Source of the DNA: an uncultured bacterium
GTDB lineage: Bacteria > Actinomycetota > Thermoleophilia > Solirubrobacterales > 70-9
Length of the DNA stretch: 64,000 bases
Assembly: GCA_963696945.1 (NCBI GenBank)
Contig: CAVOME010000008.1
Coordinates: 69,767-133,766, forward strand
Direction of reading: 5' to 3'
The translations under genes and the position numbers were made by a program. The notes beneath the pieces are model-generated. The model worked only from the letters and a program-made list of their open reading frames with translations, was not told the DNA's origin and did no database searches. Shown here one piece after another: positions 1 through 36,305 of the stretch; within the stretch, counting starts at the first letter, position 1; every line of letters begins with the position of its first letter.

Positions 1-3000
1 CTGCGTGTAGGCGGGCTCATCGGTCTCGTTGTGCCCGTAGCGGCGGTATCCGATCAGGTCGATGACGATGTCTCGCGCCCAGCGCTCGCGGTAGGCCATC
101 GCGAGCCTGATCGCCGCGATGCATCCCTCGACGTCGTCGGCGTTGACGTGGATGATCGGGACGTTGAATCCCTTCGCCATGTCGGACGCGTAGGGGGTCG
201 AGCGGGCCTCCTCGGGGTCGGTCGTGAAACCGACCTGGTTGTCGGTGATCAGGTGGACGGTGCCACCGGTCGAGTAGCCCTTCAGCGACTGCAGGTTGAG
301 CGTCTCGGCCACCACGCCCTGGCCCGGGAAGGCGGCGTCGCCGTGCAGGAGCAGCGGAACGGCGAGCTCGGGATTGTGCTCGAGGCTCGGCCCCGGCGAG
401 CGAGGTCTGCTCTGCGCGCGCGCCACCGGTGACCACCGGGTCCACGAACTCGAGGTGGCTCGGGTTCGGGTAGAGCCGGACCTCGATCTGGTCGCCGTCG
501 GGGGTCGTGAACATGCCCTCGGCGCCGAGGTGATACTTGACGTCTCCGGTCCCCCCGTGCGGGATCGCCGCCATCGCCTTGACCCGCTCGAGCGCCCGCG
601 CACCCTCGAACTCGGCCATGATCGACTCGACCGGGCGGCCGAGGTTGTGAGCCAGGACGGCGAGCCTCCCGCGGTGGGCCATCCCGAGGACCACCTCCTG
701 CGCGCCGCCCTTGCGGGCGAGGGCGAGCAGCTCGTCGATCATCGGGACGACGGCATCGAGGCCCTCGATCGAGAACATCTTCTGGCCCAGGTATGCGCGC
801 TGCAGGAAGCGCTCGAACCTGAAACACCTCGATCAGCCGCGAGAGCAGCGCCTTCTTCTCCTCGTCGGTGAGAGGGGTACGGTGGGCGCCCGTCTCGATC
901 ATCTCGCGCAGCCACATTCTCTGCTGGTGCGAGGAGAGATGCTCGATCTGGTAGGCGACCGTCTCGCAGTACGCCTCTCGCATCCTGGGAAGCGCCTCGA
1001 GCAGAGTCTCGCCCGCGACTCCGATTCGCAGGATCGACGCCGGAATCTGGGCCATCAGGTCCGGCGTCAGGTTGAGCGTCTTCGGATCGATCGCCGGGTC
1101 GCCCTTGGGCTCCTTGCCGAGCGGGTCGAGCCGAGCCGCCAGGTGACCGTGCGTGCGGTAGGCCTTGAGCAGTGACGTGGCCGCCTGGACGGCCTGGAGC
1201 AGCTCGGTGTCCGGGGGCGCCGCTTGCGTGTCGGAGAGCCCGCCGGAAGCGGGCGCCGACGCCGCCGCGGGGTACGCGTTGGCGACCACGCCCGCCGTCA
1301 GCTCGAGCGACTCCGCCAGACCCTCGTAGAAGGAGTCCTCGCCCTGAAGCAGCTGATCGATCCGTCGCAGGAACGATCCCGATTCTGCTCCCTGGATCAC
1401 CCGATGGTCGTAGGTCGACGTCATCGTCATCACCTTCGACACGCCGAGGGCCTTGAGCTTCTCGGCGGGGGCGTGGGCCCACTCGACCGGATATGCGATC
1501 GAGCCCGTGGCGACGATCGTTCCCTGGCCCGCCATCAGCCGGGGAACAGACGCCGACGTGCCGAGTCCGCCCGGATTGGTGAGGGTGATCGTCGTTCCCT
1601 GGAAGTCGTCGGCGCTGAGCCTGTTCGCGCGCGTCTTGTTGATCAGCTCCTCGTAGTAGGCGTGGAAGCCTGCGAAGTCGAGCTGGTCGGCGCCCTTGAT
1701 GCACGGAACCATCAGGCTCCGTGACCCGTCCTTTCGCTCCACGTCGACGGCGATCCCGAGATTGACCCCGCCCGGCTCGATCGCCTGGGACTTGCCGTCG
1801 CTCTCCGCGTAGGACCTGCCCATGACCCGCCACTCGATCGCCGCGATGACGATCGCCCAGGCGACGAGGTGGGTGAACGAAACCTTCATCGCGCGCTCCT
1901 TGAGCGCCCCGTTCAGCGCCCGGCGTTTCGCGTCGAGAACGTCGACGGCGAGGGTGCGGAACGAGGTGGCCGTTGGGACCGAGCGGCTCTCGTTCATCGC
2001 CTGGGCGAGCATCGCCGCGGGTCCCCGCAGGGGCACGACGGCGCCGCCGTCTGGCGCCGCCGGCCCAGCGGAGGCCAGCCCCTCGCCGTTCGCTGCCGCG
2101 AGCACGTCGGCCTTGGTCACCTTTCCGCCCGGCGCCGAGCCGCGGACCGCGCCCAGGTCGACCCCGCTCGCGGCGGCGACGCGGCGGGCGACCGGCGAGG
2201 CACGGGTGCCGTCGGTCGCGCCGGCGGCGGGGGCCGGCGCAGAAGAGGTGGGCTCGGCCGGCGGCGGCGCACCATCGGTCGGCGCGCCGGCGCCGGCGGT
2301 CAACTCCGCCAGCACCTGGCCGACCTGCACCGTCTCGTCTGGTTGGGCCAGGATCCTGGCGATCGTCCCACTGGCCGGGGCCGGCACCTCGGCGTCGACC
2401 TTGTCCGTCGAGACCTCGACCACCGTCTCGCCCTGCGAAACCGCATCGCCCTCCTGCTTGTGCCATTCGAGGACCGTGCCCTCGGTGACCGATTCGCCCA
2501 TCTCGGGCATCGAAATTTGAATAACTCTCCCGACATCCTCGGCTCCGCCTCCGGTGTCGGCGGGTTGCGACGCCGACCGACCGGCAGGGTCACTCACCTG
2601 CACCGCGACTTCGTCGCTAGTGCTGGCGGCGGTGGCTTCCCCGGGCTGCGGGGACTCGGACCCGGCCGACTCATCCCCGATGTCCTGATCGCCCTCGGCG
2701 ACCTCCTGATCGGACATGCCGGGCCCCGGTTCCTGCTGGGCGTCTCCGCCGTTGGCCGAGCCCCCGTCGCCCGACGGGGCGGCGCTCGGGTCGAGCTCGG
2801 CGAGGATGGCGCCGACCTCGATCGTCTCGTCGGGGGCCTTGAGGATCCGGGTGATCACGCCAGAGGCCGGGGCCGGGACCTCGGCGTCGATCTTGTCGGT
2901 CGAAACCTCGACCACCGTCTCGCCCTCGTTGACGAAATCGCCCTCCTGCTTGTGCCATTCGAGCACCGTGCCCTCAGTGACCGACTCGCCCATCTGGGGC

Positions 3001-3026
3001 ATCTGGATCTGGACCGTTCCAGGCAT
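1..3026 (-). pseudogene. odhA: OdhA/Kgd-like multifunctional 2-oxoglutarate dehydrogenase. It has two lipoyl domains, an E3-binding domain and an E2 succinyltransferase core fused to E1o. The C-terminus runs off the window start. Two apparent frameshifts lie near 400 and 825.
   Basis: ORF 282..3026 opens MPGTVQIQMPQMGESVTEGTVLEWHKQEGD (lipoyl 1) and repeats ISMPEMGESVTEGTVLEWHKQEGD (lipoyl 2). It then carries SPVARRVAAASGVDLGAVRGSAPGGKVTKADV (E3-binding), TSTYDHRVIQGAESG (E2 core) and the E1o N-terminus AYRTHGHLAARLDPLG. E1o continues in ORF 17..778 ([36 protein letters not shown]). A third frame carries it down to nt 1 ([36 protein letters not shown]). Confidence 0.85.
2519..2634 (+). repeat. 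R1 repeat, copy A' (about 116 nt). It lies inside the odhA ORF in the orientation opposite to copy A and is read through in frame as the inter-lipoyl linker.
   Basis: The plus strand reads TGAATAACTCTCCCGACATCC..CGGCAGGGTCACTCACCTGCACCGCGACTTCGTCGCTAGTG. The 41-nt core 2583..2623 differs at one position from the reverse complement of 3082..3122. Confidence 0.8.
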
Positions 3027-3073
3027 CTAGCTACCTAAGTTTGAGTCTATGCCCTCGACCGTGCCCAAAGTGG

Positions 3074-3186
3074 ACCGCCGACACTAGCGACGAAGTCGCG
3101 GTGCAGGCGAGTGACCCTGCCGCCACGCCGGAGCCCGAACCCGCCGGAAACGTAGCCCAAGGCGAAGCTTCCGGCGGAGTTATTCA
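3074..3186 (-). repeat. R1 repeat, copy A (about 113 nt). It lies between the stop codon of the 3184..3489 gene and the odhA start.
   Basis: The minus strand reads TGAATAACTCCGCCGGAAGC..TTCCGGCGGGTTCGGGC..GGCGGCAGGGTCACTCGCCTGCACCGCGACTTCGTCGCTAGTGTCGGCGGT. Its first three nt are the TGA stop of the upstream gene. It contains a 9-bp hairpin CCGCCGGAA/TTCCGGCGG. Confidence 0.8.
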
Positions 3187-3489
3187 GCTCACCCGGGCGA
3201 CGAGGTAGACCTCGTTCGCCAGTGTGTCGTAGACGTCCTCGAGCACGAACTCGCGGGCAGGGCCGGCGTGATCGCAGAACCCGCACCGCACCGTCTGTCC
3301 TGCCGGCATTCGACCATCGGCCCCGAGCGGCAGCGCGCATCTCGGGCAGACCAGCGCGCCGTGCGCCAGGACCTGGACCCCGTCGCGGACCAGGCGACGC
3401 TCCGCCCCCGCCTGTGAGCCGTCGACGCGGCCGAGCCGGGTGCTCGGCTGACCGGGGTCTCCCGGGTCGGCGGACAGATGAATACCCAC
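3184..3489 (-). CDS. Small zinc-ribbon protein (two CxxC pairs), function unknown.
   Basis: The tail of ORF 3184..4521 reads ..ALVCPRCALPLGADGRMPAGQTVRCGFCDHAGPAREFVLEDVYDTLANEVYLVARVS. Third-position GC is high and there is a GTG at 3489. The rest of the long ORF is antisense to the acyl-CoA reductase gene. The start is uncertain. Confidence 0.45.
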   Translation of the reverse strand: MGIHLSADPGDPGQPSTRLGRVDGSQAGAERRLVRDGVQVLAHGALVCPRCALPLGADGRMPAGQTVRCGFCDHAGPAREFVLEDVYDTLANEVYLVARVS

Positions 3490-3564
3490 CTCGCAGAGTG
3501 TAGGGTCAGGTCCGACGCGCAACCCGTCGAGGCCGCACAGAGCCTCCGACTCCAGGAGTGCAGA

Positions 3565-5686
3565 TTGAGCTACTTCGTCACCGGCGCCACAGGCTTCATC
3601 GGCCGCAATCTGGTTGAGCGGCTGCTCGAGCGCCCCGGGACCGTCTATGTGTTGGTTCGCGAGGGCTCGAAGGGCCGGCTGGCCGAGCTTCGGAGCCGCT
3701 GGGGGGTCGACGAGGATCGGGTCGTGGCCGTGGTCGGAGACCTTTCCCAGCCCGGCCTCGGTGTCTCGGACGAGGCGGTTGACAAGCTGCGCGGCAAGGT
3801 CGACCACCTGTTCCATCTCGCCGCGGTCTATGACATGACGGCCGACGCCGAGAGCCAGCGGCTCGCCAACGTCGAGGGAACACGGCACATGGTCGAGTTC
3901 GCCGAGGCCGTCGAGGCGGAGCGGGTCCACATGGTCAGCTCGATCGCCGCAGCCGGCCTCTACAAGGGGACCTGGCGGGAGGACATGTTCGACGAGGCCA
4001 CCAACCTCGACACGCACCCCTACTTCCGCACCAAGCACGACTCCGAGGCGATCGTGCGGACCGAGTGCACTCGCCCCTGGCGGGTCTACCGGCCGGGGAT
4101 CGTCGTGGGGCACTCCGAGACCGGCGAAATGGACAAGATCGACGGCCCCTACTACTTCTTCAAGCTGATCCGCCGGATTCGAAACGTCGTGCCGCAATGG
4201 GTCCCGATGCTCGGCGTCGAAGGCAGGGAGATCAACCTGGTCCCGGTCGACTTCGTGGCTGCGGCCATGGACCACATCGCCCACCAGGACGGACTCGACG
4301 GCCGTGCCTTCCACCTCACCGACCCGAAGCCCAAGAGCGCCGGCGAGGTGATCGACATCTTCGCGCGGGCCGCCCACGCGCCGCAGTCCTCGACGCGCGT
4401 TCCACCGGTCGCGGTGGAGACGCTGGCACCCCTGCTGAAGGCGCTGGTCGATGGTGCCGCCGGTGGGCCTGGCCGCGAACAGCGTCCTCGCCGACTTCGG
4501 GATTCCGCGCTCGGTCCTCACCTACATCAACTACCCGACCCGCTTCGACTCCAGGCAGGCCCAGGCGGCGCTCGAGGGCAGCGACATCAGGGTGCCGCCG
4601 CTGGAGGTCTACGCGGACAAGCTGTGGGACTACTGGGAGCGCCACCTTGATCCGGACCTGTTCCGCGACCGGACGCTGGTCGGCGCCGTGAGAGGGCGGG
4701 CCGGAGCCGTCGGTGGCGTCACCCAGATCATCGAGCAGCAGATCCCGGACGAGCTGCTGCGCGTCGGCCGCCGGTTCCTCGGCACGGTCTCGCTCGAGCA
4801 GGCGGTGCGCGGGCGGGTGGTGATGGTGACCGGAGCCTCGTCGGGGATCGGGCGCTCGGCGGCGCTGAAGATCGCCGATGCCGGCGGCATCGTCCTGCTC
4901 GTCGCCCGCACCGCCGAGAAGCTCGAGGAGATCCAGGCGCAGATCGCCGACGGCGGAGGGACCGCGTACGTCCATGCGTGCGACCTCTCCGACATGGACG
5001 ACATCGACCGGATGGCCGACGAGGTCCTCGCCCAGCATGGCCACGTGGACATCCTGATCAACAACGCCGGTCGCTCGATCCGGCGCTCGATCGCCCTCTC
5101 CTACGACCGTTTCCACGACTTCGAGCGGACCATGCAGCTCAACTACTTCGGGGCGGTGAAGCTGATCCTGAAGCTGCTGCCGGTGATGCGCGAGCGGCGC
5201 TCGGGCCAGATCGTGAACATCAGCTCGATCGGGGTGCAGACCAACACCCCGCGCTTCTCGGCCTACGTGGCCTCGAAGGCGGCGCTCGACGCGTTCTCGC
5301 GCTGTGTCGCCTCGGAGATCGTCGACGAGGGGGTGGCGATCACCACGATCCACATGCCGCTGGTGCGAACGCCGATGATCAAGCCGACCAAGATGTACGA
5401 CCGCTTCCCAACCATCACCCCCGAGGAGGCGGCCGACATGATCTGCGAGGCGATCATCTACCGGCCGAAGCGGATCGCCACCCCGCTCGGGACGCTCGGC
5501 CAGATCCTCTACGCGATCAACCCGAAGTCGATCGACTACATCCTGAACAGCGCCTACAAGCTGTTTCCCGACTCTCGTGCCGCTCGCGGCGAGAAGACGG
5601 AACCGGCCGGTACGCAGACGGCCAACGAGGAGGCGTCGCGCCAGCAGGTCGCCTTCGCCTATCTGATGAGGGGCGTTCACTGGTAG
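3565..5686 (+). pseudogene. Two-domain fatty acyl-CoA reductase (Acr1/FcrA-like: NAD-dependent reductase domain plus SDR domain). One frame switch lies near 4445.
   Basis: ORF 3478..4650 carries YFVTGATGFIGRNLVERLL..LFHLAAVYD..YFRTKHDSE. ORF 4451..5686 carries VMVTGASSGIGRSAALKIA..NNAG..YVASKAAL. An in-frame TTG at 3565 is preceded by AGGAG at 3554. Confidence 0.8.
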
Positions 5687-7390
5687 AGCGCTCCACCCGC
5701 CGGCGAAAGCACTGGGGCTGGGGGTTCGAGGACGAGGCCACGTCTCGCGGCCAGAGCTCGAGGCGGCCGCGCCCGGGATCCGCGATCGGCTGGGGTTCGG
5801 CGGCGAGGAGGTCGAGGAGCCCGTCCCGCTGGAGGCGATCGAGCTCAGGCGAGCCGAGGGTCGACTCGCCACCCTCGCTCGCCGCACAGCTTTCGCTCCG
5901 ATCGCCCACGAGCGGGTCTCCCACGCGCTCGGCAAGGCCTACCGCGACGTGGTCCGCGGCTTTCGCGGCCAGGTCGATGACCCGCCGGACCTGGTGGCGC
6001 ATCCGGGCGACGAGCACGAGCTCGAGCAGGTGCTGGACTGGTGCTCCGAGGAGGGGCTGGCGGCGATTCCGTATCGGCGGCGGGACGAGCGTGGTCGGGG
6101 GCGTCGAGCCCCGGGTCGGCGACGCCTATCGCGGCGTCCGTCACGATCGACCTGGCGCCGCCTCGACCGCGTGCGTGGAGGTCGATCCCGTCTCGGGCGC
6201 GGCGCGGATCCAGGCCGGCGCGCTCGGGCCGCACCTCGAGGATCAGCTCGCGCGAGCACGGGCTGACGCTTCGCCACTTCCCGCAGTCGTTCGAGTTCTC
6301 GACCCTGGGCGGCTGGATCGCGACCCGCGCCGGCGGACACTTCGCCACGCTGTACACGCACATCGACGATCTGGTCGAGTCGGTGCGCGCGCTCACGCCC
6401 GCGCGGCGCCTGGGAGAGCCGTCGGCTGCCGGGCTCCGGGGCGGGCCCCAGCCCGGACCGCCTGATGCTCGGCTCGGAGGGAATCCTCGGGGTGATCACC
6501 GAGGCCTGGGTCCGGGTCCGGGAGCGCCCCCGCTGGAAGCTCTCGGCCGGCGTCGCATTCGACTCCTTCGCCGCCGGCGCCGCGGCGGTCCGGGAGCTCG
6601 CTGCAGTCCGGGCTCAACCCGCCAACTGCCGGCTGCTCGACGAGGCGGAGTCGGCGCTCACCCACGCCGGGCCGCCGGGCAAGGCGCTCCTGGTCCTGGG
6701 CTTCGAGTCTGCGCACCACCCGTGGAGGGACCGATGGAGATCGCGCTCGAGGCGGCTCGCGGCGCACGGCGGCGAGCCCGGTGAGGTGACCGGCCGCTCC
6801 GCGCCCGAGCCAAGGCGGGGAGCGAACGCGGGAGAACCCGCCGGTCGAAGGCGGAAGCCGGGTCGGACCCGGTGGGCTCGTGGCGCCACGCCTTTCTCGC
6901 GGCGCCCTACCTGCGCGACACGTTGGTCGCGGTGGGCGTCCTCTCCGACACGTTCGAGACGGCGATCACGTGGGATCGGTTCGCCGACTTTCACACGCGC
7001 GGTCATGGAGGCCGCTCGCCGCGCGATCGCGCGAGGTCTGCGGACTCCCGCTCGACGGCGCCGGCTCGCCCCGCCTCTCGTGCCGCTTCACCCACGTCTA
7101 TCCGGATGGCCCCGCTCCCTACTACACGGTGCTCTGCCCGGCGAAGCGCGGCGGGGAGGTCGAGCAGTGGGACGAGATCAAGGCGGCGGTGTCGGAGACG
7201 GTGATCGAGGCGGCGGGACGATCACCCACCACCACGCCGTCGGCCGCGACCATCGCCCCTGGTACGACCGCCAGCGCCCCGATCCGTTCGCCGAGGCGCT
7301 TCGCAGCGCCAAGCGGCCGCGACCCGTGGCGCTCGACCCGGGCGTCGTCGATCCTCAATCGCAGGCGGTCCCTGGTCGGATACGCCCTAA
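5683..7390 (+). pseudogene. FAD-linked oxidase of the alkyl-DHAP synthase (AgpS)-like VAO family. It is heavily frameshifted (at least 8 frame switches). No canonical start was found, and the end is approximate.
   Basis: The ordered pieces are RRKHWGWGFEDE; YRDVVRGFRGQVDDPPDLVAHPGDEHELEQVLDWCSEEGLAAIPY; GGGTSVVGGVEP; VEVDPVSGAARIQAGALGPHLEDQL; REHGLTLRHFPQSFEFSTLGGWIATRAGGHFATLYTHIDDLVESVRALTP; MLGSEGILGVITEAWVRVRERP; WRHAFLAAPYLRDTLVAVGVLSDTFETAITWDRF; FTHVYPDGPAPYYTV; TITHHHAVGRDHRPWY. They lie in ORFs 4978..6465, 5949..6266, 6041..6784, 6465..8483, 6872..7204 and 6880..7833. Confidence 0.7.
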
Positions 7391-7400
7391 CCTTTCCGGC

Positions 7401-8348
7401 ATGGAGACGCTCACCGAGGAGCGGCCCGCCGCTGCGGCCGGCCGAGCCGTCGGGTCTCCCCGGAGGTCGACTCCCGGTCGCGCTGCTCGTCGCGATGCGA
7501 CCGTCGGAGTGGATCAAGAACCTGCTCGTGTTCGCGGGCCTGCTGTTCTCGCAGAAGCTCAGGCAGGGCCCGCAGGTGGTCGACGCGATCGCTCACCTTC
7601 GCGCGCGTTCTGCGCGATCTCGAGCGCCGGCTACCTGTTCAACGACCTGCACGACGCTCCTCTCGACCGCCGCATCCCGAGAAGCGCCACCGTCCGATCG
7701 CCAGCGGCGAGCTGTCGACGCGGCTCGACCGCCGTCGTCGCCGCGATCGTCCTGGCGGCGCGTCGCGATCGGAGTCGCGGCGCTGCCGTCGTCGCGCCGG
7801 AGGTCGCCGGGCTGGTCGCGCGCTACGGCGTGATCACGTCGCCTACTCGCTCGATCGTCAAGCGGCTGGTGATCCTCGACGTGATGACGATCGCTTCGCT
7901 GTTCCTCCTCCGCGTGGTCGCGGGCGCGGTCGCCGTCGAGGCGCACGCCTCGGAGTGGCTGCTCCTGTGCACGGCGATGCTGGCGCTCTTCCTCGGCTTC
8001 ACCAAGCGTCGCCAGGAGGCGATGTCGCTGCCGCCGGAGGCGTCGCTTCCGCCAGCCCGAAGCCCGGCGAAATCGGACACCCGCCCGGTGCTCGAGCACT
8101 ACTCGCTGCCGTTCCTCGACCAGATGGTCGCGATGGTGACCGCTGCGGCGATCATCAGCTACGCGATCTACGCGGTCAACAGCCCGATCATCGGCACCAA
8201 GATGCTCGCCACCGCGCCCTCGGTCCTCTATGGGATCTTCCGCTACCTCTACCTGATCTACGACCGCAGAGGACACCCGCTCGACGGCGGCGATCCTGAC
8301 CGAGGACCCCGGCATGATCTTCGCGGCATACTGGGTGGCGCCGGCGCT
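7401..8348 (+). pseudogene. UbiA-family prenyltransferase, closest in motif pattern to decaprenyl-phosphate phosphoribosyltransferase. It is frameshifted several times and the 3' end is uncertain.
   Basis: ATG 7401 opens METLTEE. The following pieces are RPSEWIKNLLVFAGLLFS, YLFNDLHDAPLDR (NDxxDxxxD), LVILDVMTIASLFLLRVVAGAVAV..LFLGFTKRRQE and AIISYAIYAVNSPIIGTKMLATAPSVLYGIFRYLYLIYDRR. They lie in ORFs 6880..7833, 6465..8483 and 8314..8991. Confidence 0.7.
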
Positions 8349-8473
8349 GACCTGGGTTCGACAGGACGCGCGCCTCCTGATGCGTCGGGTCGACGCGTTC
8401 GGAGCAGTGCCGACCGCGACCCGAGCGCCGCCGTTCCCAGCCAGGCCGGCGCTGGCGATAGAGTCCGCGCCGC

Positions 8474-9613
8474 GTGGATCTGACGCTGACAACCGAGGAG
8501 CAGGAGTTCCGCGACGAGCTGCGCGCCTGGCTCGAGGAGAACCACCCCGGCCCGGCGCCCCAGGGCGGCGACCAGGTCCAGTACGAGTTCGAGCGCGAGT
8601 GGCAGCGCAAGCTGCACTCCGGCGGCTGGGCCGGCGTGTCGTGGCCCAAGGAGTACGGCGGCCGAGGGGCCACGCTCATCGAGCAGTCGATCTTCGGCGA
8701 GGAGCTCGCTCGAGCCAAGGCGCCGCGACCCGCCAACGTCCTCGGGCTCGTGATGGGCGGCCCGGTGGTCATCGCCCACGGCACGGAGGAGCAGAAGGAG
8801 CGCTATCTGGAGCCGATCCTCTCCGCGGAGGAGATCTGGTGCCAGGGATTCTCGGAGCCCGAGTCGGGCTCGGACCTCGCGTCGCTGAAGACCAAGGCCG
8901 TCAAGGAGAACGGCGGCTGGCGGATCACCGGCCAGAAGGTCTGGACGACGTTCGCCCACGAGGCGAAGTGGTGCATGCTCGTCGCCCGTAGCGATCCGGA
9001 CGCCCCCAAGCACAAGGGCCTCACCTACTTCCTGATGGACATGGAGCAGGACGAGGTGGACGTGCGGCCACTTCGTCAGATCACCGGCGAGGCCGAGTTC
9101 AACGAGCTGTTCATCGAGAACGCCTACGTCCCGGACGAAAACGTGGTCGGCGGCGAGGGCAACGGCTGGATGGTCGCGATCACGACGCTGATGAACGAGC
9201 GCGCGGGCCTCGGCGCATCCGCCGCGCTCGGCCTCGCCAACTCACTCGACGAGCTGATCGAGCTCGCCAAGGAGCGCGACCTCGCGGACGACCCGCTCGT
9301 TCGCGACAAGGTCGCCCGCCTGAAGATCGCGATCGAGGGGTTGCGGCTCGGCGCCATGCGCGCGCTGACGGCGACGATGAAGGTCGGGACCCCCGGACCG
9401 GAGGGCTCGATCGCCAAGCTCCAATGGTCCTCGACCAACCAGGCGCTGACCGAGCTCGCGCTGGCGGTCGGCGGCGTGGAGACGCTCAGCAAGGACAACC
9501 TCTGGGCCTACCGCTTCCTGCGCTCCCGGGCCAACTCGATCGAGGGCGGCACGAGCGACGTGCTCAAGAACATCGTCGCCGAGCGCGTTCTCGGCCTGCC
9601 CAAGCTCAGGTGA
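8474..9613 (+). CDS. Acyl-CoA dehydrogenase.
   Basis: A single 379-aa ORF reads MDLTLTTEEQEFRDELRAWLEE..GWAGVSWPKEYGGRG..IWCQGFSEPESGSDLASL..GGTSDVLKNIVAERVLGLP. Confidence 0.9.
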   Translation: MDLTLTTEEQEFRDELRAWLEENHPGPAPQGGDQVQYEFEREWQRKLHSGGWAGVSWPKEYGGRGATLIEQSIFGEELARAKAPRPANVLGLVMGGPVVIAHGTEEQKERYLEPILSAEEIWCQGFSEPESGSDLASLKTKAVKENGGWRITGQKVWTTFAHEAKWCMLVARSDPDAPKHKGLTYFLMDMEQDEVDVRPLRQITGEAEFNELFIENAYVPDENVVGGEGNGWMVAITTLMNERAGLGASAALGLANSLDELIELAKERDLADDPLVRDKVARLKIAIEGLRLGAMRALTATMKVGTPGPEGSIAKLQWSSTNQALTELALAVGGVETLSKDNLWAYRFLRSRANSIEGGTSDVLKNIVAERVLGLPKLR

Positions 9614-9674
9614 TGCGGGTGAGCGCCTTTAGGCGCGAAACGAGATTTGCCCCCCTGGCAAGGGAAGGTTTTTC

Positions 9675-10676
9675 ATGAACTTCGACTTCAACGACGAGCA
9701 GCGCGAGATCAAGTCGACCGCCCGCGAGTTTCTCGCCTCGCGTTTTGCGCCCGAGAAGGTCCGCGAGCTCGCCGAGTCCGACAGCCCCTACGACGACGGT
9801 CTGTGGGGCGAGATCTGCGAGCTCGGATGGGCCGGCATCGCGCTTTCCGAGGAGCACGGCGGCCAGGGCCTCGGCACGGTCGAGGCGGTGATCCTCGCCG
9901 AGGAGATGGGCTACGCGCTGGCGCCCTTCGCCCTGGATCTCGAACCTCTCGGCGGGCGTCTTCATCGAGCAGGCGGGCAGCGACGAGCAGCGCGCCAAGT
10001 GGCTCCCCGGGATCGCTTCAGGGGCCGAGCGCGCCGCCGCCGCCTTCACGCCCGACGACGAGCCGGTGGTCGGCGCCGCCGCCGGCGCGTCGGTCCTGGT
10101 CTTGAACGAAGGCGACGGAGCGAAGCTCGTCGAGCCCGATGACGCCGAGCTCGAGCGCCTCGACCTGATCGACACTACGCGCGCCTACTACCGCGCCAGC
10201 GCGTCCGGCGGCGATTCGCTCCCCGGGGACGTCGAGGAGGCCGTGGAGACGATCGGTGGTCGTCCTGGCCGCCGAGCTGGTCGGGGTGGCGGCGCGAGCC
10301 CTGGAGATGGCGGTCGCCTACGCAAAGGAGCGCGAGCAGTTCGATCGCCCGATCGGCGCCTACCAGGCCGTCTCGCACCGGCTCGCCGAGATGCTCTGGG
10401 ACGTCGAGGAGTCGCGCTCGCTCGCCTACTACGCCGGCTGGACCGCGGATGCGCAGCCGGAGTCGCTGCCCGCTGGCCGCCTCGATGGCGAAGGCTCGCG
10501 CCTCCGACGCGGCGACCTCGGTGACCCACAACGCGATCCAGACCTTCGGCGGCATCGGCTTCACCTGGGAGCACGACGTCCACTTCTTCCTGAAGCGCGC
10601 CCGGGTCAGCGCCCAGCTCCTCGGCACCCCGCGCCAGCATCGGGAGCGGGTCGCCGCGCTGGCGGGGCTGGGCTAG
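9675..10676 (+). pseudogene. Acyl-CoA dehydrogenase with about 3 frame switches (near 9935, 10255 and 10470).
   Basis: The ordered pieces are MNFDFNDEQREIKSTAREFLASRF..GWAGIALSEEHGGQGLG (ORF 9675..10142); VVLAAELVGVAARALEMAVAYAKEREQFDRPIGAYQAVSHRLAEM (ORF 10256..10750); and ATSVTHNAIQTFGGIGFTWEHDVHFFLKRARV (ORF 10449..10676). Confidence 0.8.
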
Positions 10677-10694
10677 CGGGCCTCCGCGTATCGA

Positions 10695-11915
10695 TCAGGG
10701 CTCGAATCTCGCCAGGTACGGATGCGCGGGCGAGGTCGCGAAGCCGGTGAAAGTGCCCCCTGCCCAAACCGATCCATCGGGTCCGTGTGCGAGAGCGGAC
10801 GGACCCTGGTCGGGTCCCGGGTCCCATCCATTCGCTGTGCCCGTGGCGCGATCCAACCCGGCGAGCCTGTTGCGCGGCTGTCCGCCGATCTGGTCGAAGA
10901 TGCCGCTTGCGTACACAGTTTGGCCGGACACCAGGAGCTCGTAGACCCTCGCCCCCACGTCCGCGTCCGGGAACTCCGGATGGGGATTCCAGCTCGTCGG
11001 TGCGCCCGTGGCCGAATCGACGGCGGCAATGCTGATGCGCGGGGCGCCTCCCATCCGGTTGAAGTATCCGCCTGCGTAGATAGTCGAGCCCGCGACCCGG
11101 ATGGAGGCGACGTAGGGCGGGTGGTGGATGTCGAAATACGGCGGATGCCCGGTGAACACGCCGTCCGGGTGGGGGTTCCAGGGGGTCGCGTCGCCTGTCG
11201 TCGCGTTCAGCGCGGCGATCAGGTGACGATTCTTCCCTCCGACGTGGTCGAAGTATCCGCCGACGTAGACCGTCGACCCCGACACGCGGAGGTCGAAGAT
11301 CTGCGGCGTGGGGAAGGCATCGGTCGAGTCGATCTTCGGATCCGGTTTCCATGCGGTCGCGGCCCCCGTGGATCGGCTCAGGGCAGCGAGATAGGGACGC
11401 GCCTTGCCGCCGATCGACGCGAACTGGCCCCCGACGTAGAGACGGGTCCCCGAAGCGGCGAGCGCGGAGATCCCGGGGAATCCATTCGGCCCTCTAGTCG
11501 GTTTCGGATTCCACGGGGTGGCGCCGCCGTCGCTGGGGCGGAGCGCCGCGAGGACCCTGCGGGATTTCCCGCCGATCGAGGTGAACAAGCCGCTCGCATA
11601 GATCGCCGACGGGGTCGGCGCGATGCGGTAGACGGGGCCGTTGGCTCCCGGGTTCCATCCCTTCAGGGCGCCGGTCTGTGGGTCCAGGGCGGCGATGTGC
11701 CTGCGGGTCTTGCCATCGATCTGCGTGAACCCTCCCCCGATGTAGATCGCGTGCGGTGTGGGGGCGATGGCCCAGACCGGCCCATTCGGCTCCACCCCCG
11801 TGGTCGGCGTCGAGTCGAGCGCCAGGGCCGGCGAGCTCAGCAGGGTGAAGAGCGCGAAGCCTACGGCGGGCGCAGCTGCCCGGGTGACTCGTCCGTCGAA
11901 ACCGACCCTCGCAAT
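10695..11915 (-). CDS. Secreted beta-propeller repeat protein built from repeats of about 50 aa. The start is unresolved.
   Basis: ORF 10695..11795 has at least 7 repeats of the form Y.GG.F..IGG..R..LAALD..TG....WNP. In-frame upstream sequence encodes a signal-peptide-like RVTRAAAPAVGFALFTLLSSPALALD, but no ATG, GTG or TTG precedes it. Confidence 0.6.
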   Translation of the reverse strand: MARVGFDGRVTRAAAPAVGFALFTLLSSPALALDSTPTTGVEPNGPVWAIAPTPHAIYIGGGFTQIDGKTRRHIAALDPQTGALKGWNPGANGPVYRIAPTPSAIYASGLFTSIGGKSRRVLAALRPSDGGATPWNPKPTRGPNGFPGISALAASGTRLYVGGQFASIGGKARPYLAALSRSTGAATAWKPDPKIDSTDAFPTPQIFDLRVSGSTVYVGGYFDHVGGKNRHLIAALNATTGDATPWNPHPDGVFTGHPPYFDIHHPPYVASIRVAGSTIYAGGYFNRMGGAPRISIAAVDSATGAPTSWNPHPEFPDADVGARVYELLVSGQTVYASGIFDQIGGQPRNRLAGLDRATGTANGWDPGPDQGPSALAHGPDGSVWAGGTFTGFATSPAHPYLARFEP

Positions 11916-12049
11916 CGACGCGGTCCCCGACGCCAGGCGATGAAGGAGGCTGGAGACGAAACGACCGAGGATCAGGCCAGGGTACCCGACTCGGATGCGT
12001 GCGGGTCAACCGTCGAGGACCCGTTCGTGCGGCCGTCAGGTCGCCGAGG

Positions 12050-12364
12050 TCAGTCGGGAAGGATCCGCACGTCCGAGGCGAGCTTGGTCTCGCCGCGAAG
12101 CTGGTACTCGACGTCGACCGTCTCGTGCTTTCGGTAGGTGCCGAACAGGCCGAGGAACATCGCCAGGTAGCGCGCCCGACCGACCTGCTCCTTGACGATC
12201 TGGCGATTGAAGACGATCTCGCCTCCCCGCAGCTCGTAGTCGGTGCCCTCGTGCTGGACGATCCCGTTCACGTAGACGACGATCGGCGGCTCGGCGCCGG
12301 ACGGCAGGCGAACGCGCCGCCCGGCGGCGATGCTGCCCTTCGGGATCTCGCCCTCGCCGCTCAT
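12050..12364 (-). CDS. Hypothetical small protein (104 aa).
   Basis: MSGEGEIPKGSIAAGRRVRLPSG..VVYVNGIVQHEGTDYELRGGEIVF..VDVEYQLRGE. Third-position GC is high. Its ATG overlaps the upstream stop (ATGA at 12361..12364). Confidence 0.5.
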   Translation of the reverse strand: MSGEGEIPKGSIAAGRRVRLPSGAEPPIVVYVNGIVQHEGTDYELRGGEIVFNRQIVKEQVGRARYLAMFLGLFGTYRKHETVDVEYQLRGETKLASDVRILPD

Positions 12365-12671
12365 CCGAGCGCCTCGCGAACCGCGTCGAAGGGGGTCTCG
12401 CCGTCGGGCTCGAGCCGTCGCTTTCGGACCACGCCCGCATAGGGCACCAGCGAACCGTCTCCCATCACGTCGATCCCCGCCTCGCGCCCGCGCAGGAGCC
12501 CACCGGTCGAGATCTCGATGCGCGCGTGGACCCGTTGGTCCGGCTCGTAGTCGCGCAGTGCGTTGATCCCGTCGAGCGGCCCCTCGGACCGAATCTCGCG
12601 AACCCGCCTCTCCATCGCGCCGATGGCCTCGTCGAGATCGTCGAAGCTCTCCTTGTCGACCGAGGCGCCAT
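12361..12671 (-). pseudogene. Hypothetical small protein. A likely frame switch lies just after the ATG at 12671.
   Basis: The clear coding frame reads VDKESFDDLDEAIGAMERRVREIRSEGPLDGINALRDYEPDQRVHARIEISTGG..ETPFDAVREALG (tail of ORF 12361..13929). The only nearby start (ATG 12671) is in another frame. Confidence 0.4.
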
Positions 12672-12709
12672 GCCGGACGGTGAGCGTGGTAGCTCGCCAC
12701 CCGGTGGAG

Positions 12710-12742
12710 TTACTCCGGCGCCGCGAGCAGCCGGCGGAGTAA
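12710..12742 (-). terminator. Hairpin immediately after the citrate synthase stop. It resembles the head of the R1 repeat.
   Basis: The minus strand reads TGAATTACTCCGCCGGCTGCTCGCGGCGCCGGAGTAA, with stem TTACTCCG(c)CG / CG(c)CGGAGTAA. There is no U-tract. Confidence 0.4.
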
Positions 12743-12743
12743 T

Positions 12744-14144
12744 TCAGGCGCCGCGGCGCTGGCGCTTCGGCCGGCGGGCCGGCGGGCCGGTGATCTTCTC
12801 CGGGCCCTCCCGATCGTCGATCTCGACGTAGTCGCGCTCGCGCTCGCCGACGTAGATCTGGCGGGGCCGGGCGATCTTCTGCTCGGAGTCGTCGTTCATC
12901 TCCATCCACTGCGAGATCCAGCCGGACGTTCGCGGGATCGCGAAGATCACCGTGAACATCTCGGTCGGGATCTGAAGCGCCTCGTAGATGATCCCCGAGT
13001 AGTAGTCGACGTTCGGGTAGAGCTTGCGCGAGGTGAAGTAGTCGTCGTCGAGCGCGCGCTTCTCGAGCTCGCGGGCGATCTCGACCAGCGGGTTGTACTC
13101 CGTGGCCTCGAACACCTCGTCCATGTGCTGCTCGATGATCCGCGCGCGCGGGTCGTAGTTCTTGTAGACCCGGTGGCCGAATCCCATCAGCCGCTCCTCG
13201 CGCTTCTTCACGCCCTCGAGGAAGTCCGGCACGTTCTCCACCGACTCGATCCGCCGCAGCATCCGCAGCACCGCCTCGTTGGCCCCGCCGTGAAGCGGCC
13301 CGTAGAGCGCTGCGACGCCGGCGGCGACCGCCGAATAGGGGTCCACCTGCGAGGAGCCGACCCCGCGCACGGCGTTGGTCGAGCAGTTCTGCTCGTGGTC
13401 GGCGTGGAGGATGAAGAGCACGTCGAGGGCTCGCTCGAGCCGCGGATCGGGCTCGTACTTCGCCTCGGTCTTCTTGAACATCATCGAGAGGAAGTTGCCG
13501 GCGTAGCTCAGGTCGTTGTCCGGGTAGACGTAGGGGAGTCCCATGTTGTGGCGGTAGGCGAAGGCGGCCAGGGTCGGCACCTTGGCGATCAGCCGGATCG
13601 CCGCCATGTAGCGCTCCTCGGGATCGTCGATGTGCTTGGCGTCCGGATAGAAGGTCGACAGCGCGCCGACCCCGGACAGCAGCATTCCCATCGGGTGGGC
13701 GTCGTAGCGGAATGTCTCGAACAGGTTCTTGATGTCCTCGTGGACGAAGGTGTGGTGGGTGACGTCGAACATCCAGCGCTCGAGCTGCGCCTCGGTCGGC
13801 AGCTCGCCGAACACGAGCAGGTAGGCGACCTCGAGATAGCTCGACTGCTCGCAGAGCTGCTCGATCGGGTAGCCGCGATGCTCGAGGACGCCGGCGTCGC
13901 CGTCGATGTAGGTGATCGCCGATCGGCACGACGCCGTGTTCGTGAATGCCGGGTCGTAGGACATCAGGCCGAAGTCGTCCTCGGAGACCTTGATCTGGCG
14001 CAGGTCCATCGCGCGGATCGTCCCGTCGGTCACCTCGAGGTCGTAGGTCTGGCCGGTCCGGTTGTCGGTGATCGTCAGCGTGTCCGTGCCGGCGGCGGCC
14101 ACGGCGCCGTCGCCCTCCTGCTTCGTCTGCTGGTCGGTCGCCAT
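12744..14144 (-). CDS. gltA: Citrate synthase (type II) with an unusual basic C-terminal tail.
   Basis: An intact 466-aa ORF reads ..GYPIEQLCEQSSYLEVAYLLVFGELP..LFILHADHEQNCSTNAVR..GPLHGGANEAV..GFGHRVYKNYDPRA. The tail reads REGPEKITGPPARRPKRQRRGA. Confidence 0.95.
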   Translation of the reverse strand: MATDQQTKQEGDGAVAAAGTDTLTITDNRTGQTYDLEVTDGTIRAMDLRQIKVSEDDFGLMSYDPAFTNTASCRSAITYIDGDAGVLEHRGYPIEQLCEQSSYLEVAYLLVFGELPTEAQLERWMFDVTHHTFVHEDIKNLFETFRYDAHPMGMLLSGVGALSTFYPDAKHIDDPEERYMAAIRLIAKVPTLAAFAYRHNMGLPYVYPDNDLSYAGNFLSMMFKKTEAKYEPDPRLERALDVLFILHADHEQNCSTNAVRGVGSSQVDPYSAVAAGVAALYGPLHGGANEAVLRMLRRIESVENVPDFLEGVKKREERLMGFGHRVYKNYDPRARIIEQHMDEVFEATEYNPLVEIARELEKRALDDDYFTSRKLYPNVDYYSGIIYEALQIPTEMFTVIFAIPRTSGWISQWMEMNDDSEQKIARPRQIYVGERERDYVEIDDREGPEKITGPPARRPKRQRRGA

Positions 14145-35919: not shown

Positions 35920-36186
35920 CACAAATCCCGACCGGGTTTAGGGCATTTCCCCCGGCAAGGCCGCCCTCAGGGCTGATCCGGGAAGCTCGGGACCTATTTC
36001 GGGCGCCATCCCGAATCGCCGACATCCGAGCCCTTGTCGGTCGTTCGCGACGGTGGTGGTCGAGGGCCCGGTATGAGTGCCCGTTGGCCGGCGCCATCGG
36101 CCCGTCGGAGATAGCGACGTAGTCGCCGGGTCGGGCGCGGGCCGTCACGGGCAGGGCTGGGTAGGGGAGCCCATTGGCCCGCGAAA

Positions 36187-36305
36187 CCACCCGTCGGAGC
36201 CAGCGACGAAGTCGCGGTCATGGCGCCTACGTCCTGCCGCCCCGTAACGCGCCCGAGCCCGACGACACCGGAGCCGGAGGCGAGGATGTCGTCGGAGTTA
36301 TCTCA
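36187..36305 (-). repeat. R1 repeat, copy B, starting at the dodecin stop codon.
   Basis: The minus strand reads TGAGATAACTCCGACGACATCC..TGTCGTCGGGCTCGGGC..GGCGGCAGG..ACCGCGACTTCGTCGCTGGCTCCGACGGGTGG. It has the same block order as copies A and A'. Confidence 0.75.

Follow-up and report, generated by a model that had tools for sequence, protein, structure and literature searches.

Why should the start of a gene for a 2-oxoglutarate dehydrogenase fusion protein be bracketed by two inverted copies of the same ~110-nt sequence, one of them in frame within the coding region? The question arises from a 64,000-nt stretch of DNA, here called the window, from an uncultured bacterium of the actinomycetotal order Solirubrobacterales (GenBank assembly GCA_963696945.1, contig CAVOME010000008.1, positions 69,767 to 133,766; 69.7% G+C). 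A first-pass annotation based on the sequence alone had pointed out the pair around the gene, odhA, and had offered three readings: a small palindromic repeat inserted in frame, as known for the Rickettsia palindromic elements (RPEs); an invertible DNA segment; or a long RNA duplex on a read-through transcript. Our analysis indicates that the upstream copy (A) and the copy inside the gene (A') are very probably separately acquired members of a dispersed, strand-asymmetric hairpin repeat of ~110 nt in Solirubrobacterales. We take their inverted placement on either side of the odhA start to be coincidental, the outcome of two insertion events.

The geometry originally described was reproduced. 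An inverted-repeat search of the window returned arms at 2518-2629 (plus strand) and 3075-3186 (minus strand), which are 112 nt long, 77% complementary, and 445 nt apart, and one arm used as a blastn query against the window found the other at an E value of 8e-20. Pairwise, the arms align without gaps from a common start, TGAATAACTC. The 41-nt core they had been said to share (2583-2623 on the plus strand, pairing with 3082-3122) contains a single difference in this alignment, A versus G, which on the odhA sense strand of a read-through RNA is the G-U pair that had been predicted. As a family member, copy A spans 3075-3187 on the minus strand, intact, between a small zinc-ribbon open reading frame (ORF) and odhA (nhmmer E value, 5e-26; covariance model score, 117 bits). 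Copy A' spans 2517-2630 on the plus strand, antisense to odhA, at the end of the linker between lipoyl domains 1 and 2 (nhmmer E value, 3e-25). The odhA start is the ATG at 3026 on the minus strand, as annotated. In the odhA frame A' is, as first described, free of stop codons, and it ends 9 nt short of ATGCCCGAGATGGGC; it encodes AASTSDEVAVQVSDPAGRSASQPADTGGGAEDVGRVIQ (OdhA amino acids 133 to 170).

Evidence on the origin of the pair came from other genomes, whose loci are given L numbers below (P numbers denote public proteins). A pattern scan of one genome per bacterial species with GCGACGWAGTCGC-N62-92-GAGTTAT found at least 113 stretches, and ~95 of those listed are clear relatives of the window copies. 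All of these ~95 true elements are in Solirubrobacterales/Actinomycetota metagenome-assembled genomes (MAGs), nanopore and short-read assemblies alike. An nhmmer profile built from 94 pattern-scan copies, with no window sequence among them, gave 143 matches in the fetched loci, 119 of them full length, for at least 119 full-length copies in ~23 MAGs. Run with filters off, a covariance model recognized exactly three full copies in the window, A, A', and a third termed C, along with weak remnants at 12638-12747 and 36102-36181. Searches with profile and covariance model, in the window and in the loci from other genomes, thus supplied the further copies that the first-pass annotation had lacked and established a dispersed family. 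Rfam contained nothing relevant to the element at the gathering threshold or at E values up to 10, the element peptide had no match in Pfam or NCBIfam at E values up to 10, and no description of the repeat family was found in the searchable literature. By these four measures, the ~110-nt hairpin repeat family is previously uncatalogued.

The same data decide whether the pair could be reduced to a local inverted duplication, in which the linker segment was copied into the upstream intergenic region, or the reverse. A spacing of 445 nt and agreement at 40 of 41 core positions fit such an event, but a third copy lies 33 kb away and more than 100 copies exist in other genomes. Moreover, in its 5' half copy A matches a copy from another MAG (L069) at 94% identity and A' at only 67%, a value that ranks 76th of 96 in pairwise comparison of copies, and the nearest relatives of A' (88% identity) are in L030, L016, and L072. 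Because each is closer to copies in other genomes than to its neighbor, A and A' did not arise by local duplication, a reading to which we attach next to no probability. The 41-nt core corresponds to the 3' module of the element (GGCAGG, a subtype-specific stretch, and the 3' hairpin); 25 of its 41 nt are nearly invariant across the family, and the rest belongs to a subtype also present in L103, L092, L087, L113, and L016.

Alignment of the family revealed a four-part anatomy. The consensus, (T)GAATAACTCCGCCGG…CCGGCGGG-variable-GGCAGG-variable-ACCGCGACTTCGTCGCTAGC, consists of a 5' tip, (T)GAATAACTCC, in which TGA and TAA occur; a long hairpin that covaries; a middle that varies; and, ahead of CTAG, a conserved 3' hairpin, GCGAC-TTC-GTCGC. 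Copy A folds canonically (z = −3.0). Its long hairpin (hairpin 1, 3140-3178, minus strand) has a lower stem of 12 bp and an apical one of 3 bp, with an internal loop between them, and was also picked up by the inverted-repeat search (arms 3141-3157 and 3161-3177), and its 3' hairpin, GCGAC-TTC-GTCGC then CTAG, can be read at 3087-3099 (minus strand). In A', hairpin 1 is degraded (CTCTCCCG), and the canonical hairpin is not formed upon folding. The element is also modular: the ~24-nt 5' tip is often tandemly duplicated, the 3' module is sometimes repeated, and the loci contain 240 occurrences of the 5' tip motif and 130 of the 3' motif.

Covariation supports the fold. Over 97 distinct copies, the 12-bp stem, the 3-bp apical stem, and the 5-bp 3' hairpin were paired in 96.9% of cells, versus 84% after shuffling; 232 cells carried changes in both partners, a value that none of 500 shuffles reached. 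Sliding the partner columns by 1 to 3 positions lowered pairing to 33 to 55%. Several pairs changed type cleanly, with one pair being G-C 47 times, A-U 39 times, and C-G 8 times and another being G-C 49 times and C-G 47 times. The 3' hairpin (helix 3) was 100% paired, with C-G replaced by G-C in 9 copies, its conservation being partly imposed by the search pattern. G-U pairs outnumbered A-C pairs 178 to 12, and because of this excess the strand that folds can be assigned as the sense strand of the element. An RNA and a single-stranded DNA intermediate are both compatible with this covarying structure.

Read on the opposite strand, the element is an open frame encoding an Ala/Pro/Glu/Gly-rich peptide of ~37 amino acids, …ASDEVAVQASEPAAP…PAGN.AEGEASGGVI(Q/P), and this peptide recurs in several proteins, as it would if the conserved unit were a protein motif or domain (…SDEVAV…GGVIQ) instead of a DNA element. 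Most copies are intergenic, however, on a strand that does not code for the peptide, and the compensatory changes in the hairpin alter the peptide. The absence of Pfam and NCBIfam matches and the predicted disorder of the region also argue against a domain, as does a HMMER search of 1.84 billion representative proteins, which found only 39 matches, mostly short spurious ORFs. We regard a protein motif as exceedingly improbable. A word-indexed protein search with the peptide profile likewise found only 17 short ORFs; because cluster representatives are usually without the insert, neither protein search can count the host proteins that carry it. Among public proteins P0121 to P0137, many "hypothetical proteins" of 40 to 80 amino acids are the open antisense frame of intergenic copies, that is, gene-caller products.

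The histories of A and A' were read from four orthologous odhA loci: L096 and L013 (syntenic, 80 to 85% DNA identity), L114 (encoding P0004), and L115 (encoding P0007). Copy A is missing from all four. In L096 and L013 the zinc-ribbon stop codon is only ~30 nt from the odhA ATG, where the window has a clean extra block of ~130 nt. This absence from every orthologous locus makes copy A a recent lineage-specific gain. The A' site is filled, in the same orientation, in L096 and L013, where the copies bear extra 24-nt tip units translated as EASGGVV repeats. Judged by this distribution, A' is older than A and predates the split from at least two related species. No copy was found in the odhA linkers of L115 or of the closest homologues, P0002, P0003, P0005, and P0006. 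The second linker, between lipoyl 2 and the peripheral subunit-binding domain (PSBD), contains a further copy in L096 and P0008 and a partial one in L114, and the first linker of L114 holds a possible element relic, GEGSGRVIEV. AlphaFold predicts OdhA amino acids 116 to 163 as coil, with a per-residue confidence (pLDDT) below 50, between two confident lipoyl domains, and the loss of the A' hairpin fits a sequence now evolving as a linker.

The L013 locus contains another copy (5508-5622), antisense to odhA and adjoining its 3' end. The odhA ORF there, 1,472 codons long, stops at a TAG ~9 nt past the 3' (CTAG) end of that copy. In this species the odhA locus has family members at both ends as well as inside.

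Comparison of these loci also bears on the reading of the pair as an intragenic inverton, in which recombination would flip 2630-3074 and switch odhA between a two-lipoyl form and one starting at the Met before lipoyl 2. Inverted arms of 112 nt with a 41-nt near-identical core, an in-frame ATG ahead of lipoyl 2, and the existence of single-lipoyl homologues (77% query coverage) are all in keeping with such a switch, and, as in known invertons, inverted repeats flank a segment with a gene start. In invertons, however, the arms are short and conserved, a recombinase is dedicated to them, and reads contain both orientations, whereas the odhA arms are two independent copies of a dispersed repeat, each with closer relatives elsewhere, and are only 77% alike outside the core. 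The inverted pair is not conserved because arm A is lineage specific, and relatives provide no inverted state: L096, L013, and L114 are collinear with the window, and in L115 odhA and the small ORF are oriented to each other as they are in the window. An informal reading, without a domain scan, of the six-frame translation of 3001-12900 brought no recombinase to light. An inverton has no support and is very unlikely.

The RNA duplex reading is physically plausible. On a read-through transcript, copy A could pair with the complement of A' to form an imperfect duplex of ~110 bp enclosing the odhA start and lipoyl 1, which might act as an RNase III target or a block to translation. The zinc-ribbon gene has the same orientation as odhA, at a distance of 157 nt, and in a 701-nt read-through RNA both the minimum free energy and the centroid folds hold the full A:A' duplex (−394.8 kcal/mol, z = −12.4), including the 41-bp near-perfect core with its lone G-U mismatch. 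Global folding of this kind, however, ignores cotranscriptional folding and ribosomes, and conservation failed, as the duplex is missing in relatives because copy A is absent from all four orthologous loci. In addition, a TANNNT-type motif, TAGACT (3044-3049, minus strand), lies just downstream of copy A and 17 nt upstream of the odhA ATG. The motif recurs ~10 to 17 nt before the odhA ATG in five of five orthologous loci (as TACACT in L115) and is, by sequence, a candidate −10 box for a short-leader odhA transcript. If this conserved candidate between A and the ATG is the odhA promoter, the gene's own transcripts would be without copy A. Consensus scans of 2400-3600 for sigma-70 promoters and intrinsic terminators found none. 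The A:A' duplex is a by-product of two insertions, and a regulatory function for it is unlikely.

The first reading, an in-frame palindromic repeat resembling RPEs, is supported by the dispersed family, by the absence of A at the four orthologous loci, and by in-frame copies in at least seven unrelated housekeeping proteins. Most copies lie directly behind a gene and point the same way as it does, and many provide its stop codon. A co-oriented ORF of at least 80 codons with high G+C at third codon positions (GC3) ends at the 5' tip of 49 of 109 copies, compared to 2.9% of random positions in the same loci, and such ORFs usually end on the element's own TAA or TGA. For 14 further copies a convergent ORF ends in the 3' tip, in 10 cases on the TAG of GCTAGC. 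Antisense copies inside long ORFs account for 15 of 106 (~14%), and the frame used was always D-E-V in the 12 antisense copies detailed and in A'. Of the possible position statistics, only stop-at-tip with its random control was relied on; classes based on the orientation of flanking genes carried too much noise, since GC3 is common to antisense frames.

Seven hosts of in-frame copies were confirmed with Pfam. Inserts are found in the linkers of OdhA, between the two GTPase domains of Der/EngA, in a loop inside the barrel of HisF, between the two radical-SAM halves of FbiC, and in the C-terminal tail of ribosomal protein L10; an Lhr-type helicase has two to three copies, and a molybdopterin oxidoreductase completes the set. 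The pLDDT profile predicts that the OdhA insert sits in a tolerant position, and domain boundaries suggest that the same may hold for the other hosts. In-frame copies in L096, L013, L113, L031, and L023 have tandem 24-nt tip duplications that produce EASGGV(I/V) or EDVGGVIP octapeptides, and linker length in these proteins is altered as the number of tip repeats changes.

On the main reading, which we hold to be very probable, copy A was recently inserted between the zinc-ribbon gene and odhA, co-oriented with the gene that it stops. Copies landing antisense and in frame in linkers or loops are tolerated and persist as coding sequence, the resulting peptide being perhaps harmless and perhaps useful. 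A' is one of these, lengthening the disordered inter-lipoyl linker of OdhA while losing its hairpin. Beyond this, we put forward a more tentative model in which the family might be more than junk DNA. The element might be strand specific and, guided by its hairpin, home to the very 3' ends of genes; it has stop codons at each tip, TGA/TAA in the 5' one and, in the 3' one, TAG on either strand of GCTAGC. Intergenic copies might serve as RNA structure in 3' untranslated regions (UTRs), either a terminator or a stabilizer. Throughout an order of abundant soil Actinomycetota, the family might repeatedly furnish essential enzymes with new disordered linkers, and it might move by a novel route, without terminal inverted repeats, target duplication, or a transposase, yet with modules that recombine.

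Several points weigh against the main reading. The element does not have terminal inverted repeats; its tips, GAATAACTCCGCC… and …GCTAGCCCGGGCGG, are not complementary, and the inverted repeats are internal, in hairpin 1. No target site duplication is visible when A is compared to L096/L013 or L005 to L050, genomes that are 5 to 20% diverged and whose junctions are imprecise. In the 113 loci searched, no transposase was identified, nor was an autonomous version consisting of a 5' module, a gene, and a distant 3' module. For these reasons we infer mobility from the distribution of copies, including an insertion polymorphism at a second site that is empty in L050 and filled in L005. The collection pattern fixes both tips, so that tip conservation is overstated and divergent subfamilies were missed, and ORF calls made from GC3 and stop-to-stop ORFs are noisy in DNA of 70% G+C. 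The 5' hairpin of A' is a different compensated subtype from that of its positional orthologues in L096 and L013, which suggests that a module was replaced or that the site was hit more than once. Finally, translation of A' is deduced from the reading frame of odhA in an assembly with two frameshifts further downstream.

Two further readings were considered and set aside. Against an IS200/IS605-type element, a single G is the only conserved base on the 5' side of the tip. Against integron attC sites, the copies occur dispersed among housekeeping genes, and RYYYAAC is not matched by the tip.

The closest parallels to the Solirubrobacterales element are found in distant bacteria. RPE-1 to RPE-10 of Rickettsia (Ogata et al. 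2000, summarized in PMC10969869) are, according to that 2024 review, the outstanding case of frequent in-frame insertion. Like RPEs, the element is a repeat of ~100 to 150 nt with hairpin potential and many dispersed copies, a sizeable fraction of which lie in frame, in a single reading frame, in unrelated housekeeping genes; in both cases the encoded peptide occupies tolerant surface or linker positions and no transposase is known. There are also differences. No sequence relationship was seen, with no match in NCBIfam, Pfam, or Rfam, and the host is a free-living soil actinomycete order of ~70% G+C rather than an intracellular alphaproteobacterium with a reduced genome. The peptide, of low complexity and made of Ala/Pro/Glu/Gly, is predicted to be disordered, most copies are at gene 3' ends, where they donate stop codons, and the element is modular, with 5' and 3' modules duplicated separately.

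Repetitive extragenic palindromes and the bacterial interspersed mosaic elements built from them (REP/BIME), which are found in proteobacteria with RAYT transposases, offer a second comparison. They too are hairpin repeats outside genes, frequently located directly behind a gene and inside a transcript, that occur in mosaic module arrays, have strand-specific structure, and are without terminal inverted repeats or target duplications. REP units, however, are 20 to 40 nt long with a conserved GTAG-type head, whereas the element is ~110 nt long and has three parts, and REPs are extragenic by definition, whereas ~14% of element copies are in frame inside genes. [quoted passage not shown] They differ from the element in that its tips are not inverted repeats of each other and no parent insertion sequence is known. 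The element is not a strict MITE, and for a REP it is too long and lies inside genes too often. On balance, we file it as an RPE-like and REP/BIME-like modular hairpin repeat in which both tips carry stop codons and the antisense frame is open.

Among actinobacteria, the mycobacterial interspersed repetitive units (MIRUs) are intergenic repeats that are co-oriented with flanking genes and overlap, at their ends, the upstream gene's stop codon. The element is likewise co-oriented with flanking genes, its tip overlapping the upstream stop codon. MIRUs, however, are tandem direct repeats of 46 to 101 bp without a covarying hairpin; no in-frame insertion into an enzyme is known for them, and they have no sequence similarity to the element.

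That a small repeat colonizes housekeeping genes in frame has been viewed as peculiar to Rickettsia (PMC10969869). Its occurrence in a free-living, high-G+C, widespread soil lineage means that the behavior is not tied to reductive intracellular genomes, and it offers another system, independent of the first, for studying the movement of such elements and the tolerance of one frame. The OdhA linkers, the interdomain linker of Der, the HisF loop, and the FbiC linker amount to natural insertion experiments. In practical terms, the family creates spurious small "hypothetical proteins" in databases, alters gene 3' ends and stop codons, and probably causes difficulties in assembling and annotating Solirubrobacterales MAGs.

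The gene that raised the question required a more precise name. The product is not a plain OdhA: the gene (1-3026, minus strand, cut by the window start) encodes a fusion of two lipoyl domains, a PSBD, an E2 catalytic domain, and E1, as judged from the ORF, Pfam, homologues, and structure prediction. On the minus strand, lipoyl 1 lies at ~2787-3020, the linker at ~2532-2786, lipoyl 2 at ~2292-2531, and the PSBD at ~2091-2204, followed by the E2 catalytic and E1 parts. Pfam recognized both lipoyl domains, the E3-binding domain (amino acids 275 to 309), and the acyltransferase catalytic domain (amino acids 330 to 561), and the 2-oxoglutarate dehydrogenase E1 part is on the C-terminal side, running off the window start. 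OdhA/Kgd proteins of Corynebacterium and Mycobacterium are not known to have a lipoyl domain, unlike this single-polypeptide fusion, and the closest public proteins are from Solirubrobacterales/Thermoleophilaceae MAGs. Homologues with one lipoyl domain have a query coverage of 77%, versus 100% for those with two. The E1 part contains two apparent 1-nt frameshifts, at ~396 and ~819, where orthologues have one G fewer in GG and GGGG runs. Similarly, a short-chain dehydrogenase/reductase (SDR)/fatty-acyl reductase on the plus strand (4451-4650) is split into two overlapping frames in the window and is a single 709-amino-acid gene in L114. The odhA and SDR frameshifts are probably homopolymer errors of the long-read assembly, not marks of pseudogenes.

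Upstream of odhA, the small zinc-ribbon ORF (…CPRC…CGFC…LVARVS*; 3184-3486, minus strand, start approximate) is a syntenically conserved gene of 101 to 102 amino acids for which a Pfam search, with the approximate start at 3486 as the query start, gave no family match. Copy A opens with the TGA (3184-3186) that stops this ORF. The protein ends R-V-S-stop in the window and R-V-stop in orthologues because the stop is now supplied at the copy A tip. Beyond the zinc-ribbon ORF lies the fatty-acyl reductase/SDR gene identified with Pfam, which is divergently oriented.

Elsewhere in the window, copy C (36191-36305, minus strand; nhmmer E value, 4e-24; blastn match at 36202-36301, E value of 3e-12) is the third full-length element. 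It is located between a dodecin gene and a sulfite/nitrite reductase gene (Pfam Dodecin and NIR_SIR), and its tip TGA is the stop codon of the upstream dodecin gene. A partial extra 3' module (GGCGACTACGTCGCT; 36102-36181, minus strand) follows it in tandem as a weak match (E values of 0.07 with nhmmer and 0.05 with the covariance model). At 12638-12747 (minus strand) there is a remnant consisting of 5' tips only (TGAATTACTCCGCCGGCTGCTCGC…GGAGTAACTCC; covariance model E value, 0.007), intergenic and with its tip units in an inverted arrangement. The orthologous site contains a full element plus two extra 3' modules in L015/L050 and something else in L005; this intergenic spot turns over quickly. 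The site at window positions 8350-8453 also has three states, being empty in L050 (~7157-7188), filled in L005, and different again in the window: the L005 copy (3597-3707) is a full element directly after a TAG stop codon, and the window has ~104 nt of unrelated or degraded sequence in its place.

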